Shown one piece after another: positions 508 to 6,064 of a stretch of DNA of 6,100 nucleotides. The notes under the pieces were generated by a model. That model did not search any database, was not told where the DNA came from, and saw only the letters and a list, made by a program, of their open reading frames with translations. This DNA comes from Halomonas sp. (GTDB lineage: Bacteria > Pseudomonadota > Gammaproteobacteria > Pseudomonadales > Halomonadaceae), in NCBI GenBank assembly GCA_007116835.1, contig SKHS01000123.1:1-6100 (forward strand), in the 5' to 3' direction. Every line of letters begins with the position of its first letter. Position 1 is the first letter of the stretch. The position numbers and the translations under genes are program-made.

Positions 508-520
508 TCCGTTTTATTTC
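491..520 (+). terminator. weak candidate intrinsic terminator overlapping the methyltransferase stop codon
   Basis: AAAACGG (491-497) pairs with CCGTTTT (509-515). The 11-nt loop contains the TGA stop and is followed by TTTTATTTC. The stem is mostly A:T, so support is weak. Confidence 0.3.
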
Positions 521-540
521 TTACACACTTTGCTACACAC
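520..540. repeat. two adjacent CT(T)ACACAC motif copies
   Basis: CTTACACAC at 520-528 and GCTACACAC at 532-540. These are degenerate copies of the exact 10-mer at 681-690 and 925-934. Confidence 0.4.
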
Positions 541-680
541 CAAAATTTATCACGCTGTAGGGCGCATAAATGCTGGGTTTTGTTTGAGTGTCTGCTCTCA
601 TAATCCAATCACTCTGGTAAGCTGTTGGGCAGGAACCCAGTAAAATAGCGGCTTGTAGCGTGTTTTTGGTGCTGTATTTT

Positions 681-701
681 GCTTACACACCGCTCACACA
701 C
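681..701. repeat. GCTTACACAC motif copy (upstream of tRNA), followed by CGCTCACACAC
   Basis: The exact 10-mer GCTTACACAC at 681-690 recurs at 925-934. Both copies are followed within 0-2 nt by CTCAC. Confidence 0.5.
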
Positions 702-799
702 TTTGGACGTTGTTTTTAGTGTTTTTTTTGCTGTTTCTACACTATGTATAGTCAGCAGCTAAGCACTAAGTTGTGAAAAAATAAGTTGTAAAAGTTATA

Positions 800-876
800 G
801 GGCCCATAGCTCAGTTGGTTAGAGCAGAGAACTCATAATTCTTTGGTCACAGGTTCAAGTCCTGTTGGGCCCACCA
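800..876 (+). tRNA. tRNA with CAT anticodon; features favour tRNA-Ile2 (lysidine-modified CAU) over elongator tRNA-Met
   Basis: A 77-nt cloverleaf folds by hand. Acceptor stem GGGCCCA (800-806) pairs with TGGGCCC (866-872), then discriminator A873 and encoded CCA 874-876. The D arm is TAGCTCAGTTGGTTAGAGCA. Anticodon stem GAGAA/TTCTT (827-831/839-843) carries loop CTCATAA with anticodon CAT at 834-836. T arm is ACAGG-TTCAAGT-CCTGT. C4:G69, C5:G68 and G27:U43 match the E. coli tRNA-Ile2 pattern as I recall it. Confidence 0.95.
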
Positions 877-977: not shown

Positions 978-2315
978 ATGGCTGAAAAGAATGAAACAAC
1001 GCACACGCTGTTAGACAGAGAGTTGATTGTTTACAGACGTGAACGCAGCAACATTTGGCAATGTCGTTTTAAGGTTGACGGCATTTGGCAACGTGCGTCA
1101 ACAAAAGAACGCGACTTAAAAAAAGCAAAGACAAAAGCAAACGAGTTGCGTATTGAAGCTGAAATACGCAAGCGTTCTAACTTGCCTGTAATCACACGCA
1201 AGTTTAGAGACGTTGCCAAACTTGCTGTTGAACGTATGGAACACGAAATACGAAGCGGCAATGGCAAAGTGTCATACGCAGACTACATACGTGTGATTGA
1301 AGAATATTTGATACCTGCGTTAGGCAAACGTAGCATTACAAACATTGATTACACAGCGTTAGACGAGTTGGACGCCAAGCGCATTGAACAAATGGGCAAA
1401 GCGCCAAGTCAAAGCACTATGCTGACGCACAACGCTGCGTTAAACAGAGTGTTTGACGAAGCAGTCATACGCAACTTTTTAACAGAAGCAAATCGCCCAA
1501 AACTTGAAGCTAAAGGAAAAGCAAGTGATAGAAGGCCTGCTTTTGATATGGCTGAAATACGTGCGTTAGTTGGAAGCTTTGACGAATGGATTGAAAGAGC
1601 GCGAAACGCAAAGAGTAAAGAAATGCGAACGTTGCTGCGCGACTACGTTGACGTATTGCTTGACACAGGCGCAAGGCCAGGCGACGAGTTGCTGAACTTA
1701 AAGTGGAAGCAAATAAAGTTTGTGATGAAACCAATCACAATAAAAACAGGTGTGATTGACAACACAGACGACGGACACGAAGAGATAACGCTGTCAAACT
1801 TAAACAGAAGTTTGGAACTAACGATAAGCGGAAAAACAGGCACACGCACTATTGTTGCTATGCTGCGAACGGTTAAAGCGTTGGAACGCATAGCAAAGCG
1901 CAACTACGAGATTGACGACGACATTACTGAGCCGTTCAAGCAGCTGACATTGCCGACGAACAAAGACTATGTGTTTCGAACACGTGACAAGCAAGCGCCG
2001 ACAAGTTGGCAAAAGATGTTTGAGAACTATTTGACTGAACACAACTTATTAGAAGATCCAAGCAGCGGACAGAAGCGTGTGTTTTACAGTTTGCGGCACA
2101 CGTATGCGACGTTGGCGCTGACAAATGACAAAGTGCCGATACACACGTTGTCAAAGCAGATGGGAACAAGTGTGCTGATGATAGAAAAACACTACAGTCA
2201 TTTACAAGTCATCAAAGCAATTGACCAGTTGCGTGGTGAAGAAACACGCAGGCTGATTGATGCGGGTGGTGTAGTGGATGAGATTTACACGAGCAAGAAA
2301 AAGCGCAAAAAGTGA
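978..2315 (+). CDS. int: tyrosine-type site-specific integrase (445 aa)
   Basis: Long ORF with ATG at 978. Catalytic-domain motifs: LLDTGARPGDEL (box I Arg), YSLRHTYATLAL (box II Arg-His), MIEKHYSHL (candidate nucleophile Tyr). The N-terminal segment IWQCRFKVDGIWQRAST resembles integrase arm-binding N-domains. The position just downstream of a tRNA is typical of genomic-island integrases. No clear Shine-Dalgarno sequence precedes the ATG. Confidence 0.9.
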   Translation: MAEKNETTHTLLDRELIVYRRERSNIWQCRFKVDGIWQRASTKERDLKKAKTKANELRIEAEIRKRSNLPVITRKFRDVAKLAVERMEHEIRSGNGKVSYADYIRVIEEYLIPALGKRSITNIDYTALDELDAKRIEQMGKAPSQSTMLTHNAALNRVFDEAVIRNFLTEANRPKLEAKGKASDRRPAFDMAEIRALVGSFDEWIERARNAKSKEMRTLLRDYVDVLLDTGARPGDELLNLKWKQIKFVMKPITIKTGVIDNTDDGHEEITLSNLNRSLELTISGKTGTRTIVAMLRTVKALERIAKRNYEIDDDITEPFKQLTLPTNKDYVFRTRDKQAPTSWQKMFENYLTEHNLLEDPSSGQKRVFYSLRHTYATLALTNDKVPIHTLSKQMGTSVLMIEKHYSHLQVIKAIDQLRGEETRRLIDAGGVVDEIYTSKKKRKK

Positions 2316-2413
2316 TGCGCAGCAAGTGAGACGCAACAGGGGCGGAGGAAAGTATTTTTACTATGCCTGTCGTGCGTTCAAGCGTCGTGTTTATAGACGC
2401 TGGTTTAATCACC

Positions 2414-2432
2414 AAAAAACCGCTCTTTAGCG
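2414..2432 (-). terminator. weak candidate terminator for the leftward operon
   Basis: On the minus strand, a 4-bp stem CGCT/AGCG (2421-2424/2429-2432 in plus coordinates) with a tetraloop is followed by TTTTTT (plus-strand A run 2414-2419). It lies 15-33 nt downstream of the sORF stop. The stem is short, so confidence is low. Confidence 0.3.
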
Positions 2433-2446
2433 CCAAACGACGGGTT

Positions 2447-2620
2447 TTACTGAGTGGCAAGTTGTGACAACTGCTGCTGCGTTTTGCGCAGTTTGAGTTG
2501 TAGAGCAGCACGGCGAGCAGATTTTGTGGCAGCTTTGGCAGCACTCTGTTGCGCTTTGACACGCTGGGTGTCGGCGTTGAGATGATTGTTTTGTTGGCTG
2601 ACGACTTCTGCGATACGCAC
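2447..2620 (-). CDS. 57-aa basic, probably helical small protein (GTG start); not listed in the ORF track
   Basis: My hand translation of the minus strand gives VRIAEVVSQQNNHLNADTQRVKAQQSAAKAATKSARRAALQLKLRKTQQQLSQLATQ*. GTG is at 2620-2618, preceded by GAGGAG (2633-2628) with a 7-nt spacer. The start lies 27 nt downstream of the stop of the 146-aa gene (operon-like spacing). Stop TAA at 2449-2447. There are 10 K/R versus 2 D/E. The gene is real only if translated, and no homology was recognised. Confidence 0.4.
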   Translation of the reverse strand: MRIAEVVSQQNNHLNADTQRVKAQQSAAKAATKSARRAALQLKLRKTQQQLSQLATQ

Positions 2621-2647
2621 TGTGCTGCTCCTCGTGTGTAGCAGTAT

Positions 2648-3088
2648 TTAATCGTTTGTAAAACCTTTGCGTAGCGCAACACTGGCAGCATCTAAATGCG
2701 CATCGAGTTCGCCGTTCATAACAGCCTGTTTAATCAACTCAAATGTCGATACAAGTTCTTTGGCGCTGCTGACTTCGACGGCAGCTTTGCCTCGTGCTAA
2801 CTCCAGCACACGTGAGCCGTATTTGATTTGGACACACAGTTTGCCGTTGTCCGCAACAAATGTCCAAGCTTTGACAACTTTAGGAACTTCGACAGTTTTA
2901 CGCAGTCCGGTTTCTGCGTCCGTGTAGCTGCGCAAGCGTGTAGCAGTGTAGGTAGTGCCGTTTTGTTGTGCTGTGATGAATGCGATTTGTTCATCGATTC
3001 TGCGCAGCAACTTATGACGACGCAGCAGAGCAGGGCTGATGTGCGTGGGTTTTTTGGCGGCTGTGAGTTTGAGTTGTGCGAGGGTCAT
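2648..3088 (-). CDS. conserved hypothetical protein, 146 aa
   Basis: I place the start at the internal Met (M81 of the 226-aa track ORF), ATG at 3088-3086. It is preceded by AAGGAA (3100-3095) with a 6-nt spacer. The product is MTLAQLKLTAAKKPTHISPALLRRHKLLRRIDEQIAF...GELDAHLDAASVALRKGFTND. From memory it resembles small proteins of unknown function (possibly the DUF6641 type) found on proteobacterial islands; this is unverified. Confidence 0.7.
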   Translation of the reverse strand: MTLAQLKLTAAKKPTHISPALLRRHKLLRRIDEQIAFITAQQNGTTYTATRLRSYTDAETGLRKTVEVPKVVKAWTFVADNGKLCVQIKYGSRVLELARGKAAVEVSSAKELVSTFELIKQAVMNGELDAHLDAASVALRKGFTND

Positions 3089-3252
3089 TTTGAGTTCCTT
3101 TTGTGCTGTGTTGAGAAGGTGTCGTTCAAAACGACAAACAGCACGATATGTTCTGACAAGCACGTAGGACAACGGGTTTAGGCAAGAAAACAGGGCTATG
3201 AACAGGACAGGTAAAAAAATATTGGTTTTTCTGTTCAAAGCTAAATAACTGT
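3089..3252. promoter_or_regulatory. divergent intergenic control region between the 146-aa gene and the rep-like gene
   Basis: A 164-bp gap separates two divergent starts. It contains palindrome GTCGT-N5-ACGAC (3121-3135) and the composite inverted repeat TATGAACAGGA (3197-3207) ... CTGTTCAAA (3231-3239), which ends 13 nt before the rep ATG. I could not identify convincing -35/-10 hexamers by eye. Confidence 0.5.
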
Positions 3253-3819
3253 ATGAATACATCACATACAGCACACAACAAAGCAGCCTACGCAGCAGCG
3301 CAGCAGGGCTATTTACAGCACATCGCACAGCACTGCGATTACGCCGTCACGCTACAAACCAGTTTGCGCACGTGTGGCATTAAGGCAAAAACAATGGAAG
3401 ACAGGCTGTACAGGACGCAGGGAAGTTTGAGGCAGCTGCGCAACAGGTTAAACAGGCTACTGACAGGCAACGGCTACAAGCGCAACAACAGGTATCTGCC
3501 GATATTTGTTGCGGCTATAGAGGGCACGACAAACAGCTACGACTTAAACAGAACGCTACACATACACGTGGCACTAGGCAACACAGGGCACACAGCAAAC
3601 GAACAAACACGCAGGCTGATAGAAGACGGCATTAGGCAAATATGGGCAGCAACAGACGTAGGCACAGCTGACGTAAAAGTGGATAGGCTGACACAGGGAA
3701 CAGAACACAGATGGATGGACTACATAGGTAAAGAGTCACACGCAGGGCGAACAGGCAACATAGACGTCATCGACTACAGCAACACACAAATACCCGAACA
3801 CTTACTACAGCGCACTTAA
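3253..3819 (+). CDS. HUH-superfamily rolling-circle Rep-like protein (188 aa), possibly of the YagK/YfjJ or inovirus Gp2-like type
   Basis: The ORF is the first possible start after an in-frame stop at 3199-3201. Three motifs occur in canonical order: Y30-AVTLQT (motif I-like), E90 then L-H103-I-H105-VAL (HUH motif II, codons at 3559-3567), and D-Y157-IG-K160 (YxxK motif III). No Shine-Dalgarno sequence is visible. The coding call is good, but the functional call rests on motifs only. Confidence 0.6.
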   Translation: MNTSHTAHNKAAYAAAQQGYLQHIAQHCDYAVTLQTSLRTCGIKAKTMEDRLYRTQGSLRQLRNRLNRLLTGNGYKRNNRYLPIFVAAIEGTTNSYDLNRTLHIHVALGNTGHTANEQTRRLIEDGIRQIWAATDVGTADVKVDRLTQGTEHRWMDYIGKESHAGRTGNIDVIDYSNTQIPEHLLQRT

Positions 3820-4071
3820 CAGGCGAACAACACATTAGGCAAGCGTGTGATTTGACGAAGCGTTGATTACACAAATAGAGAGACAACAAGACAAGAGGGA
3901 TACTGACACTGTGAAGCGGTGGTTAGTTGTATGAGTGTGTTCGAGACATTTTCAAACAAAGTCAAACACTGTGATGAAAAACACAACGAACAAAATCCGA
4001 CAAAGAACGACACGATGAACAAACGAACAGTGATGACACAGAGAACACACGCAGAAACACACAGTAGGGGT

Positions 4072-4082
4072 CATAAATCAAC
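4072..4082. repeat. left arm of perfect 11-bp inverted repeat (CATAAATCAAC)
   Basis: CATAAATCAAC at 4072-4082 is the exact reverse complement of GTTGATTTATG at 4404-4414. Confidence 0.85.
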
Positions 4083-4190
4083 ACGTGGCAGAAAAACAGG
4101 CAGACGCTGAAAAACGCACGGTGGATTTTTGTGGGCTAAAGATGAAAATTGGCTGAGCACATACACAGCAGAACAAACAGCAAAACGCAC

Positions 4191-4233
4191 AGCGCATAGC
4201 AAGCACTCAAAACGCTTCTATGCGCTTTTTTTT
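4191..4233 (+). terminator. strong rho-independent terminator
   Basis: AGCGCATAG (4191-4199) pairs perfectly with CTATGCGCT (4218-4226). After a bulged C4200 the stem extends with AAGC (4201-4204) pairing GCTT (4214-4217), leaving a 9-nt loop. A run of eight T residues follows (4226-4233, the first shared with the stem). Confidence 0.8.
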
Positions 4234-4360
4234 GGCTGTGCGAATAGCAACACAGCACAGCATCAAAAAACGCAGCGTGTAGGGCGTTTTAAAGCGTCGA
4301 TAAATGTGGCTTATTGACTACGAACATACGTACAGCACGAGCAAAGCAGCGGTAAATACA

Positions 4361-4392
4361 TATGAACAGGAAATACGCAAAAACTGTTCAAA
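4361..4392. promoter_or_regulatory. second copy of the composite TATGAACAGGA ... CTGTTCAAA inverted-repeat motif, upstream of the small recombinase
   Basis: TATGAACAGGA at 4361-4371 is identical to 3197-3207. CTGTTCAAA at 4384-4392 is identical to 3231-3239. TGAACAG and CTGTTCA are reverse complements. An extra half-site ATGTTCAAA lies at 4484-4492. Confidence 0.55.
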
Positions 4393-4403
4393 TGCTGTAA
4401 GTC

Positions 4404-4414
4404 GTTGATTTATG
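4404..4414. repeat. right arm of perfect 11-bp inverted repeat (GTTGATTTATG)
   Basis: Exact reverse complement of 4072-4082. A related direct copy CGTTGATT occurs at 3861-3868 (compare 4403-4410). Confidence 0.85.
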
Positions 4415-4511
4415 GAAGGCTTTTGCGTGTCAAAAATAGGTAGGAAAAACGATGAAAAGAAAACACACTATACGCAGCAAACAATGTTCAAACGCAAACA
4501 GGAGCAGCACA

Positions 4512-5078
4512 ATGGCGCAAGCAGCAACATTAGACACGCAACAGCTACAGCGGGTGTTGGACTACTTAAAAACACGCAGACACTATCAACGCAACAGAGT
4601 GATGCTGCTGCTGACACACTGGTCAATGCTGCGTGTGGGCGAAGTGGCAGCGCTGCGCTACTGTGATGTGTTGGACAGCAACGGACAGATATTAAGTGAG
4701 ACTGTGCTGGCGGCAACACAGACGAAGGGTGAAAAGAGCAGACGCATTTGGTTTAACGAGCGTATGCGTGCGGAGTTGGCAGCGTATGTGGCAGCACACA
4801 AACCGAAACACAAAGCGCAGAAACTTTTTTACACACAGCGCAGTGAAGGTTTTACAGCAAACACGCTGACACACATCATCAACAGCTTCTATCAAAAAGC
4901 GGGCATCGCAAACGCATCATCACATTCGGGCAGACGCAGTGGTTTAACTGCGTTGGCAGATAAAGGAGTGAGTGTGCGTGTGCTGATGGCGATTGCGGGG
5001 CACAGCCAGTTAGCGACAACACAGCGGTATATTGATTTACGGCCCAGTGTTGTTAAGGCTGCGGTGGAGTTGGTTTAG
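4512..5078 (+). CDS. small tyrosine recombinase consisting of the catalytic domain only (188 aa from ATG 4512; 208 aa if ATG 4452 is used), FimB/FimE-like in size
   Basis: All canonical catalytic motifs are present: MLRVGEVAAL (Arg), HSGRRSGLTALA (H-x-x-R), AGHSQLATTQRYIDL (His ... nucleophile Tyr). ATG 4512 is preceded by AGGAG (4500-4504) with a 7-nt spacer. ATG 4452 has only a weak GGA upstream and would add a basic low-complexity leader. Stop TAG at 5076-5078. Confidence 0.85.
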   Translation: MAQAATLDTQQLQRVLDYLKTRRHYQRNRVMLLLTHWSMLRVGEVAALRYCDVLDSNGQILSETVLAATQTKGEKSRRIWFNERMRAELAAYVAAHKPKHKAQKLFYTQRSEGFTANTLTHIINSFYQKAGIANASSHSGRRSGLTALADKGVSVRVLMAIAGHSQLATTQRYIDLRPSVVKAAVELV

Positions 5079-6064
5079 ATTTTTTCAGCTACACAATGGA
5101 TTTCTGAGCAAAAGTGATTTCTATCAAAAATAGACTGAATCTCATCTATTTTTTGTCCAAATCCTGTATGTAAGTAATCCATTAGCTTTTGCGAAGATTT
5201 GTTCTTTTGTAGTGTCGTAAGTGTTTGTCGGTATAAATCCATCGCATCAGTTCCGAATCGCCATTCAGCTAATGATTTGACGCCGATTAGTTCGTTCATT
5301 TCTTTGATCGAGTTTTCTGTGAACAAGTGCGTATGGCCGCCTGACAACTGACGAGGGAAAACTTCTGTGAATATATTTTCTAAAATAACAGAAAATGAAA
5401 ACATAGGCACTGAGTAATAAAGATATTGAGCGTTGCTTTTTTTGAAGGCCTCAAAAAACTTGCGAGGCTCTCGCAAATGCTCAAAGACTCCTATTGCTGA
5501 AATCACATTTGCGTTACTTTTTATTATTGAGTTATAAAAACCTTGTTCGTTTTCGAAGCTAAGAGGCTCTATATTTGAATGATGTGAGATTTGATTATTT
5601 CCAAAATCGACCATAGTCTTGCTTACATCTAATCCTGTGGCGCTTAAGTTTCTTAGCAATGCTGCCAAAACAAAATATCCGCTGCCACAGCCGACATCTA
5701 ATATTTCATATTTTTTAGGCGGTAGACTTGCTATAAGGAAATCAACTTTTGGGATATAAATATCAGTAGTTCTTTTGTGAAAATCTTTATCAATGTAGTT
5801 ATTTGAGTAATCGCTGCCAGCGTCTAAAATGTAAAGTTTCTCAATGAAATCTTGAGTATCTTCAAACTTGCCGTTTAAGTGAGAGCATTTGGAACAGAAA
5901 ACATAGTCAACACCGTGCGAATGAAAGTCTAATGAGTTTGGAAGCGGAGATTCGCAAACCTTACATAAATCTCGTTTGGGTTGACTTGCGTATAGGGTAT
6001 TTTGTTTTATTGATTTTTCAAGAAGCTCTTGATTGGCAGTAAAGAAATCTTTTTTTGTGTTCAA
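5075..6064 (-). CDS. class I SAM-dependent methyltransferase with N-terminal Cys4 zinc-ribbon-like motif (329 aa from TTG)
   Basis: ILDVGCGSGYF is SAM-binding motif I, followed by ATGLDVS and ISAIGVFEHL. The N-terminal CKVCES...CSKCSHL resembles the zinc-binding domain of sugar C-methyltransferase-like enzymes. The track start is TTG (6064-6062) with no Shine-Dalgarno sequence, and the frame stays open to base 6100, so the true start may lie beyond the window. The gene is AT-rich, unlike the insert. Confidence 0.85.
   Translation of the reverse strand: MNTKKDFFTANQELLEKSIKQNTLYASQPKRDLCKVCESPLPNSLDFHSHGVDYVFCSKCSHLNGKFEDTQDFIEKLYILDAGSDYSNNYIDKDFHKRTTDIYIPKVDFLIASLPPKKYEILDVGCGSGYFVLAALLRNLSATGLDVSKTMVDFGNNQISHHSNIEPLSFENEQGFYNSIIKSNANVISAIGVFEHLREPRKFFEAFKKSNAQYLYYSVPMFSFSVILENIFTEVFPRQLSGGHTHLFTENSIKEMNELIGVKSLAEWRFGTDAMDLYRQTLTTLQKNKSSQKLMDYLHTGFGQKIDEIQSIFDRNHFCSEIHCVAEKI

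Follow-up and report, generated by a model that had tools for sequence, protein, structure and literature searches.

Positions 3820-4233 of the DNA analyzed here, a stretch of 6,100 nucleotides from contig SKHS01000123.1 referred to as the window throughout, directly follow rep, a gene predicted to encode a divergent rolling-circle replication initiator of the HUH type (HUH188), in a small element integrating at tRNA-Met. We found this region to be functional: it is a conserved non-coding tail with a double hairpin (HP1 and HP2), an accessory block of A-tract repeats (block C) and a predicted terminator (HP3). The reading that we favor, tentatively and at somewhat less than an even chance, is that it serves a small integrative rolling-circle element as its origin region, being linked to rep and co-transcribed as the 3' untranslated region (UTR) of that gene. 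A function as origin and a function as RNA are not exclusive, since an origin can lie inside a 3' UTR. The coordinates of all features are given in Table 1.

The Region Downstream of rep Is Non-coding

The original prediction described 3820-4233 as free of open reading frames (ORFs) and rich in A over T, and both statements were borne out. The region contains 163 A, 83 C, 96 G, and 72 T, and the earlier count of 28 A and 6 T in 4021-4080 was reproduced exactly. All six frames are broken, with 3, 7, and 11 stop codons in the plus-strand frames, and the longest listed ORF spans 63 codons (3919-4110). The region is non-coding, because indels in the relatives ignore the reading frame and no excess of third-position substitutions is present. 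The share of pairwise indels that were a multiple of three was 17% in clade 1 and 37% in clade 2, and the alignments of relatives revealed neither third-position excess nor codon periodicity for orf63 or orf62. The tblastn matches of orf62 fell on DNA that is conserved in the alignments yet interrupted by indels of 1 and 10 nt. With frame-blind indels, no codon periodicity and no ORF in the relatives, both orf62 and orf63 were rejected as coding. An intact ORF at this place in relatives had been proposed as the mark of a decayed gene; none of the relatives has one.

The region had also been said to keep the sense signature of the plus-strand genes. The skew is present but not special, as an excess of A over T goes with the sense strand in all element genes, whichever of the two strands carries them. 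For the element genes (978-5078) the sense-strand skew was 0.2-0.55, with the sign flipping for the two minus-strand genes, while the cargo and flanking methyltransferase genes (1-507 and 5075-6064) were without it. Avoidance of T in codons and purine loading are possible causes. The gaps of relatives contain long spurious antisense ORFs, for example at 6676-6996 of locus L002, because their antisense strand is A-poor.

The Gap Between rep and Rec208 Has a Conserved Layout

Downstream of rep the next gene encodes a tyrosine recombinase (Rec208). The two are separated by 632 nt in the window, and intergenic DNA runs past 4233 to 4451. We surveyed the gap in 66 distinct loci bearing both HUH and Rec208, with alignments made within two clades and motifs counted across all loci. 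A gap of 300-740 nt, non-coding and with an A over T skew of 0.07-0.39, was found in all 66. Two short gaps are deletion variants: HUH is broken up in L014, where tblastn gave three segments, and an N-terminally shortened Rec208 follows immediately on the gap in L011. Genomes of freshwater Burkholderiales, among them Polynucleobacter, Limnohabitans, and Hydrogenophaga, and many contigs of lake metagenomes were the source of the relatives. A blastn search of a phage DNA collection gave no match, IMG/VR held no relative of the Rep, and an exact-protein look-up returned only an identical contig of 1.5 kb. The gene order DUF6641 (minus), HUH (plus), gap, Rec208 (plus) was nearly universal among the loci.

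Within the gap the shared order is HP1, HP2, a hypervariable spacer, the A-tract repeat block and a hairpin with a T-run, followed by blocks E-G and the ribosome-binding site (RBS) of Rec208. The spacer contains short tandem units in some relatives, such as four copies of CAGACAACAT in L034, and Tandem Repeats Finder (TRF) reported a 12-13-nt unit at 4039-4062 of the window; spacer indels are not multiples of three. Block C carries a motif of the AAAAATCA type, present in the window as CATAAATCAAC at 4072-4082, together with three (C/G)(T/A)GAAAA repeats at about 4089, 4107, and 4140 and GATTTTT at 4124-4130. The sequences AAAAATCA and GCTGAAAA were present at conserved relative positions in 55 and 53 of the 66 distinct gaps, respectively. 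For blocks E and F, TGTAGGGC was found in 55 and TGTGGCTT in 49 gaps, and the RBS of Rec208 (AGGTAGGA, 4438-4445) in 57-62.

The contig L012, a gammaproteobacterial metagenome-assembled genome (MAG) contig, encodes a Rep that is 41% identical to HUH188 and no Rec208 homologue detectable by tblastn. Right after rep it keeps HP1 with the AAG loop of the window, HP2 with another stem, and AAAAATCA, and it is without blocks E-G. Because these elements are kept and blocks E-G lost where no Rec208 was found, the comparison assigns the HP1/HP2 module to rep and not to the recombinase. In L015, where Rep identity is 32%, HP2 and AAAATCA are kept, and a motif of the AAAAATCA type persists too.

Block C and the Rec208 leader share a perfect complementarity of 11 nt (4072-4082 and 4404-4414; CATAAATCAAC and GTTGATTTATG). 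Long-range pairing of the two was rejected: the complementarity is retained, along with a matching A/T change, in part of clade 1 and not in L088, the L028-type loci or clade 2.

HP1 and HP2 Are Plus-Strand-Specific Hairpins

HP1 is a real structure under selection. Covariation was assessed in 37 distinct sequences in register, with a slid 3' partner and 500 shuffles as controls. We found 90.2% of cells paired compared to 25-51% in the slid controls, 9 of 14 pairs changed on both sides, and a covariation score of 0.394 compared to at most 0.114 in controls. No shuffle reached any of these values except the count of pairs changed on both sides, which was reached by one of the 500. The lower stem is wholly different between clades (GCGTGTGAT/GTCGCACGC and CTTGTCGT/ACGACAAG), with further versions being GCTTAGA/TCTAAGC, CTTTTG/CAAAAG, and GCGTG/CACGC vs. 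GTGTG/CACAC. The upper stem GACG/CGTT, which includes one G·T pair, is invariant and the bulged T (T3853) nearly so, and this combination suggests recognition by a protein. The triloop varies, being AAG in the window and CAG in most relatives. A core of TTGACG(C/A)AGCGTT was found directly after HUH in relatives with as little as 41% protein identity.

Cells with G·T numbered 100 and cells with A·C only 10, and the HP1 pairing therefore exists on the plus strand only. The plus strand was also more stable than the minus strand in 36 of 37 HP1 variants and in 31 of 33 HP2 variants. HP2 is part of the minimum free energy fold of nearly all relatives and has a G·T pair in 26 of 34 variants. Its stem is mostly conserved in sequence, with alternative complementary stems in L094, L013, L095, L041, L089, L012, and L015. 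Compensatory base-pair changes were accordingly found for HP1 and, in part, for HP2. With RNA parameters the median stabilities were -12.6 kcal/mol (HP1) and -11.6 kcal/mol (HP2).

Folding of the whole region (3820-4240; z = -1.06) or of the 5' module (3836-3935; z = -0.93) was no better than that of shuffled sequences, and Rfam 15 gave nothing in 3820-4451 at E-values up to 10. A globally structured non-coding RNA (ncRNA) across 3820-4233 is not supported. Thus, of the structured ncRNA that the original prediction had considered, a covarying, plus-strand-specific hairpin stood, whereas the global structure, with its hypervariable middle, did not. The proposed check for covariation and conservation had a positive outcome, in that HP1 covaries and blocks are conserved across clades.

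These observations bear on the view that the region is a decayed gene or, its terminator aside, a neutral spacer. The low-complexity, hypervariable middle third and the coding-like composition would agree with it, but no relative has an intact ORF, indels ignore frame, HP1 covaries, the HP1, HP2, and AAAAATCA motifs are kept at Rep identities of 32-41%, and a gap is kept in 66 of 66 distinct relatives, the short ones in L011 and L014 being deletion variants. We disfavor this view as highly improbable.

A closing stem enclosing both HP1 and HP2 was considered and rejected, as cognate flanks gave -8.4 kcal/mol and non-cognate flanks -7.8 kcal/mol. As for a second copy of HP1 that could form an ori/ter pair, the only match was on the minus strand inside the integrase gene and is probably due to chance. 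In clade-2 loci, e.g., at about 5900-5960 of L004, the HP1 core (TGACGCAGCG) is also found in the divergent promoter region upstream of rep; it is missing from that region in clade 1 and in the window.

A Predicted Terminator Closes the rep Transcription Unit

The 13-bp stem with T8 that had been noticed at the end of the region was confirmed. In HP3, 4191-4199 pairs with 4218-4226 (9 bp) and 4201-4204 with 4214-4217 (4 bp), leaving a 1-nt bulge (C4200) and a 9-nt loop; the free energy (dG) as RNA is -18.1 kcal/mol and the T8 run occupies 4226-4233. A consensus terminator scan missed HP3 only through its 8-nt loop limit. HP3 is almost identical within clade 1. In clade 2 the same place is taken by another 15-bp hairpin (AACACGCTGAC.CAGC/GCTG.GTTAGCGTGTT) followed by TTTT, and in the clade of L041, L044, and L089 by a third hairpin variant followed by GTTTTT. 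Since the sequence turns over while the position stays, HP3 is predicted to be an intrinsic terminator conserved in function but not in sequence across clades. It resembles known intrinsic terminators in its stable GC-rich stem-loop with a T-run and in its position at the unit end, kept in three clades; it differs from them only in its 9-nt loop, the sequence of which is conserved within clade 1 and within the L041/L044/L089 clade.

The placement of a terminator at this end argues that the whole stretch is transcribed together with rep, as its 3' UTR. A long 3' UTR had been among the original suggestions, and a terminator conserved in position and closing a conserved non-coding stretch supports it well. 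No convincing promoter was found inside 3820-4233 by consensus scan and inspection.

Upstream of rep, an alignment of 35 non-redundant regions placed TAAATA 5 nt ahead of the rep ATG (3253). The short distance and the lack of an RBS suggest that the rep mRNA is leaderless. The same inverted-repeat half-sites and TAAATA are found ahead of rep and of Rec208 alike, with conservation across clades. Rec208 therefore seems to be transcribed from a co-regulated promoter of its own, located downstream of the terminator. The shared repeat and TAAATA point to one repressor for both genes, possibly the DUF6641 protein or orf57. Because Rec208 seems to be separately promoted, 3820-4233 is a natural unit running from the rep stop codon to the terminator, while the part of the gap beyond it (to 4451) is a separate control region linked to Rec208.

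The Upstream Gene Is Predicted to Encode an HUH Rep

The HUH188 protein contains the motifs FVAAIEG, TLHIHVALGN, and RWMDYIGKE, which read FVAAIEG, TLH-I-H-IALGN, and RW..YIGKE in its homologues. The HUH metal motif (TLHIHVALGN) and the catalytic Tyr (YxxK, in YIGKE) are present in the order found in Rep proteins. Among 68 diverse members H103 and Y157 were invariant, and E90, W131, and K160 nearly so. Pfam PF23343 (REP_ORF2-G2P) was matched by 20 of the 68 and Rep_1 by 2. Of ten members scanned individually only P0195 was above the curated cut-off (28.2 bits compared to 27.8), and the window protein had no match in Pfam, PHROG, or NCBIfam. A sequence profile of the family likewise matched nothing in the PDB. 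The AlphaFold (AF2) model of HUH188 had a pLDDT of 81.7, and its top fold matches in the PDB were HUH nucleases with weak E-values (0.016-0.2); against the BFVD viral library E-values went down to 1.8e-4, with microvirus replication initiators among the matches. The family is small, with 159 cluster representatives among 1.84 billion proteins. Although no curated model matches the window protein, the upstream product is on sequence and model best classified as an HUH Rep. The rolling-circle Rep that had been named originally is thus in keeping with the motifs, the invariant H103 and Y157, the Pfam matches of members and the fold matches.

Evidence for and Against an Origin Downstream of rep

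As a rolling-circle replication (RCR) initiator, HUH188 would need a site in cis. The gap of 632 nt is the candidate because the other non-coding stretches of the element in the window are already accounted for; these are the attachment (att) arms, the convergent 131-nt gap between Int and orf57, and the divergent promoter/operator region of 164 nt. HP1 and HP2 are located directly after HUH in all clades, L012 included, and so lie in cis and are co-inherited with the Rep, as is expected for a rolling-circle origin. That HP1, HP2, and AAAAATCA trail HUH down to 41% identity, and HP2 with AAAATCA to 32%, supports this reading. The plus-strand-specific pairing fits a structure formed on a displaced strand. 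Related Reps work on origins with several hairpins. Among characterized origins, that of pKYM consists of a core and an enhancer, and the 167-bp ori(+) of CTXphi is nicked in its second hairpin, at the apical loop (PMC4439123).

Based on this, replication could proceed as follows. The integrase Int445 would excise the element, and HUH188 would then nick the plus strand in the HP1-HP2 module or use the hairpins as recognition structures. A host helicase and polymerase would displace the plus strand, on which HP1 and HP2 could refold and mark where Rep terminates and re-ligates, where the lagging strand is primed, or both. The CTGAAAA/A-tract block would act as an accessory region, either as an enhancer or iteron-like, and the A/C-rich middle as a spacer tolerant of length. 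HP3 would halt rep transcription ahead of the separately promoted recombinase gene.

Several observations weigh against an origin at this place. No nick-site consensus was recognized by eye in the alignments, no pattern search having been run, and the HP1 loop, of 3 nt and variable, would make a poor nick site. The CTGAAAA repeats are not phased. Known RCR origins are usually located upstream of or inside rep. With DNA parameters the median stabilities were only -6.5 kcal/mol (HP1) and -3.7 kcal/mol (HP2), those of the window itself being -2.8 and -2.1 kcal/mol, and 3836-3935 folded as DNA (z = 0.09) was no better than shuffles. The free exchange of U·A for U·G at four HP1 stem positions is typical of RNA. 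Finally, the terminator always follows the module and not the stop codon directly; the RNA would therefore be made and may be the functional molecule.

The last points raise a second possibility, which we hold as doubtful but worth serious attention, namely that the region acts at the RNA level. As a functional 3' UTR, HP1 and HP2 would control the stability, processing or translation of rep mRNA, e.g., as a site for RNase III or another protein, or the 3' UTR would give rise to a small RNA (sRNA) of about 160 nt made up of the terminator-proximal block C and HP3. With RNA parameters the stability of the hairpins is about double that with DNA parameters, their pairing is specific for the sense strand, and G·U pairs are freely tolerated with one of them invariant. 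The composition is purine-rich and T-poor like that of the element's mRNAs, the unit is always closed by a terminator of conserved function and divergent sequence, and an A-rich block stands directly ahead of this terminator and its U-tail. On the other hand, neither the whole-region nor the 5'-module fold (z = -1.06 and -0.93) stands out, no Rfam family matches, the central third (about 125 nt) is hypervariable, and no internal promoter or processing site was identified. An invariant upper stem with a variable loop fits recognition by a protein of either nucleic acid, and Rep would still need an origin, for which there is no better candidate. A bolder version is that HP1-HP2, with its invariant G·U/G·T pair, constitutes a new class of structured module, confined to a hitherto undescribed family of mini-Rep integrative elements, that is made as RNA and partners the replication or recombination machinery, as primer or initiator RNA, as an autoregulatory switch bound by Rep or as a packaging signal for a helper, and is not merely a DNA origin. 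We consider this unlikely.

The evidence for a cis-acting site of an HUH protein would apply equally to an origin of transfer (oriT), with HUH188 as a Rep-like relaxase and HP1/HP2 as the hairpin and nick site for mobilization by a conjugative helper. Relaxases recognize a hairpin on the transferred strand and nick a few bases 3' of it, and in clade 2 ATTGTCTA, 12-15 nt 3' of HP2, resembles the nic region of R388. However, ATTGTCTA is absent from the window, the detectable relatives of the family are replication initiators of phages and plasmids and not MOB relaxases, and no genes for coupling proteins or mating-pair formation were seen nearby. A function as oriT is therefore rather improbable.

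The position of the region immediately ahead of Rec208, whose similarity to Xer-type enzymes is confined to their catalytic part, could further indicate a substrate site for this recombinase, used for multimer resolution, cargo exchange or inversion, or an RNA that guides a recombinase. Homology between elements breaks at the Rec208 stop codon, which suggests site-specific exchange of cargo nearby, and the conserved blocks E-G accompany Rec208. These blocks, however, are located past the terminator and thus outside 3820-4233, while HP1, HP2, and block C are kept in L012, where tblastn found no Rec208 homologue. Neither a pair of inverted or direct repeats flanking the region nor a core-type site with two arms and a spacer of 6-8 bp was seen, and HUH-gap-Rec is shuffled independently of Int/att, so that the gap does not specify the integration site. 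Involvement of the region in recombination by Rec208 is very unlikely, and the same retention of HP1 and HP2 in L012 weakens the earlier idea that an RNA partners the recombinase. A bridge-type guide RNA was rejected as well, since its neighbors here are tyrosine recombinases and an HUH protein and not IS110-type, and since the gap module is shuffled independently of the att module; complementarity to the att core was inspected by eye only. An invertible promoter switch served by a small FimB/E-like recombinase was discarded for want of flanking inverted repeats.

Comparison With Known Replication Systems

An origin region downstream of rep has its closest counterparts in the plus origins of filamentous phages and their satellites (CTXphi/RS1 ori(+), Ff), which combine a G2P-type HUH Rep with a non-coding region of several stem-loops. 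In Ff, the hairpins of the intergenic region are active on the plus strand alone, and one of them is at the same time a terminator. The small gene divergent from rep also recalls rstR/rstA. In contrast to these phages the window element has no morphogenesis genes, uses its own tyrosine integrase at a tRNA gene and not XerCD at dif, encodes a Rep of only 188 aa, and has its candidate origin downstream of rep. No similarity to their nick sites was recognized by eye, no pattern search having been made, and the plus strand of the element is A-rich and T-poor, whereas that of Ff is T-rich.

Single-strand origins (sso) of rolling-circle plasmids are non-coding, imperfect hairpins that are specific for strand and orientation in replicons with an HUH Rep. 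The strand asymmetry of HP1 and HP2 in non-coding DNA (100 G·T vs. 10 A·C cells; 36 of 37 and 31 of 33 variants) and the tolerated G·T pairs agree with this. The known sso types were defined in Gram-positive plasmids; their conserved boxes were not recognized in the gap, and the stabilities with DNA parameters are low.

The element as a whole resembles tycheposons, small cargo-carrying elements of streamlined aquatic bacteria that have an inward-facing tyrosine integrase next to a tRNA gene (tRNA-Met being one target) and a small replication module and form tandem arrays split by partial tRNAs, with degenerate copies (Hackl et al., bioRxiv 10.1101/2020.12.28.424599). The window element shares with them the site-specific integrase at the end by a tRNA, the tandem arrays with partial tRNAs, and the cargo. 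The replication modules listed for tycheposons are polymerases, primases, and helicases, with no HUH Rep among them (10.1101/2020.12.28.424599), whereas that of the window element consists of an HUH Rep and DUF6641. The element further differs in its hosts (freshwater Burkholderiales), in carrying a complete tRNA-Met, in inserting at the anticodon loop, and in having a second recombinase with a catalytic domain only and a slot for one cargo gene; this comparison was made by description.

Literature searches returned no description of the element and, in the literature searched, no mention of DUF6641. No description of the module or of the element family was thus found, while the parts are familiar: an HUH Rep with a hairpin-rich cis region, an integrase targeting a tRNA, and a cargo slot. 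The elements recur in Polynucleobacter, Limnohabitans, other freshwater Burkholderiales, and lake metagenomes. Because they stand in tandem at tRNA-Met with one exchangeable cargo gene each, they are candidate vectors of strain-level variation, as proposed for the oceanic tycheposons. The non-coding module is the only sizeable cis candidate for an almost unannotated Rep family and the best handle on replication and movement of the element. HP1 and HP2 are precise targets for mutation, and the cultured host Polynucleobacter sp. MWH-Loch1C5 carries locus L002, which makes the question testable.

Organization of the Integrative Element

Table 1. Positions and properties of features in the window.
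Feature	Position	Strand	Description
Right arm of preceding element copy	515-606	+	90-nt block
Element left end	597-876	+	Crossover core CTCATAATCC 597-606; left arm 607-799; complete tRNA-Met 800-876 (ARAGORN, Rfam)
Int445 tyrosine integrase, 445 aa	978-2315	+	PF00589; phrog_1 3.9e-33; adjoins tRNA-Met in relatives
orf57	2447-2620	-	Divergent from rep
DUF6641 protein	2648-3088	-	PF20346 2.7e-12; phrog_31551 5.9e-22; divergent from rep
Putative HUH188 promoter and operator	3199-3247	+	TGAACAG (3199-3205)...CTGTTCA (3231-3237), TAAATA (3242-3247)
HUH188 (rep), 188 aa	3253-3819	+	Predicted divergent HUH rolling-circle replication initiator
HP1	3845-3872	+	Hairpin 26 nt past rep stop (about 25-30 nt in relatives); core TTGACGCAGCGTT
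HP2	3902-3927	+	About 30 nt past HP1; CTGACACTG-loop-CAGTGTTAG type; conserved 3' flank TAGTTGTAT
Hypervariable A/C-rich low-complexity spacer	3940-4065	no strand	Large indels, no conserved columns (clade alignments)
Block C, conserved A-tract block	4068-4156	+	Aligns across clades
HP3, predicted terminator	4191-4233	+	13-bp bulged stem, 9-nt loop, T8; closes rep unit
Blocks E and F (CAGCGTGTAGGGCG..., TGTGGCTTATTGACTACG)	4274-4323	+	Conserved, past terminator, outside 3820-4233
Probable Rec208 promoter and operator	4353-4394	+	TAAATA (4353-4358); TGAACAG-N16-CTGTTCA (4362-4368 / 4385-4391)
Rec208 tyrosine recombinase, 208 aa	4452-5078	+	PF00589 2e-24; PDB XerC-like 4a8e 1e-12
S-adenosylmethionine (SAM)-dependent methyltransferase cargo	5075-6064	-	Pfam methyltransferase domains; convergent; single cargo slot

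The order of the element is left arm, tRNA, Int, orf57, DUF6641, HUH, gap, Rec208, one cargo gene, and right arm. Its length is about 5.6-6 kb, which extends past the window and replaces the earlier estimate of about 4.5 kb. The synteny of orf57 and DUF6641 with HUH188 holds in nearly all loci. The 515-606 block recurs about 1 kb past Rec208 in L002, L003, L020, L030, L037, L033, L047, and others, where it is followed by the 3' half of the tRNA, and in blastn of the window against the loci the tRNA 5' half recurred in other loci upstream of the complete tRNA that the element bears. Because the tRNA halves and the block recur at the ends of other loci, we conclude that the element inserts into the anticodon loop of the host's tRNA-Met, at CTCATAATCC, and supplies a complete tRNA-Met as replacement. 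Integrating elements usually restore only the 3' part of a tRNA. The separation of the 5' and 3' halves was seen at 597-876 of the window, 2988-3299 of L006, 3610-3731 of L030, and 6087-6133 of L065. The tRNA-Met of the element is located about 200 nt inside its left end and differs from those of L006 and L008 by compensatory changes in the anticodon stem and T-stem.

The beginning of the window belongs to a preceding copy in a tandem array, and its end falls short of the right arm of the element described here. A methyltransferase fragment at 70-507 is the cargo of this preceding copy and 515-606 its right arm. In L037 a tandem pair was found with the second copy lacking Int, DUF6641, and HUH.

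The XerA, XerD, and XerC models of NCBIfam match Rec208 over no more than their C-terminal, catalytic portion. In more than 50 loci homology reaches exactly as far as the stop codon of Rec208 (5076-5078; GAGTTGGTTTAG). Past this point most loci have a different low-GC gene, which is convergent in the genomic loci with listed ORFs, and the same methyltransferase cargo adjoins Rec208 of different clades in the window, L065, and L082. The 3' side of Rec208 looks like a slot for one-gene cassettes; no recombination site was identified at it.

Between the window and L006 or L008, Int is 92-93% and HUH 63-64% identical, and the Int/tRNA and HUH-gap-Rec modules are, judging from such comparisons, shuffled relative to each other. 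In L004, L007, L009, and L011 (about 3500-4800 in each), DUF6641-HUH-gap-Rec208 stands behind two other genes, an unrelated ORF of about 429 aa that presumably encodes another type of integrase and a minus-strand gene for 162 aa; a tRNA was not present within 6 kb. Since it is found behind this unrelated ORF, the replication module would combine with different integration modules.

The sequence CTYACACAC occurs at 520-528, 682-690, 693-701, and 926-934 (with a variant at 533), which is 4 times compared to 0.22 expected and was reached in none of 200 shuffles. These repeats, which flank the core and the tRNA, probably represent integrase binding sites of the arm type. They are found only at 520-934, and attP or arm sites inside the gap were rejected on this basis. 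An enrichment of TGTAGGGC-like motifs was not significant (6 matches compared to 1.3 expected, with 2 of 200 shuffles reaching this number).

In L080 (JACCDG011062774.1), positions 1-95 and 5415-5509 are identical at 94 of 95 nucleotides. The repeat has a period of 5414 nt and spans a complete element of the Int429 type, and it represents either a tandem duplicate or an assembled circular form.

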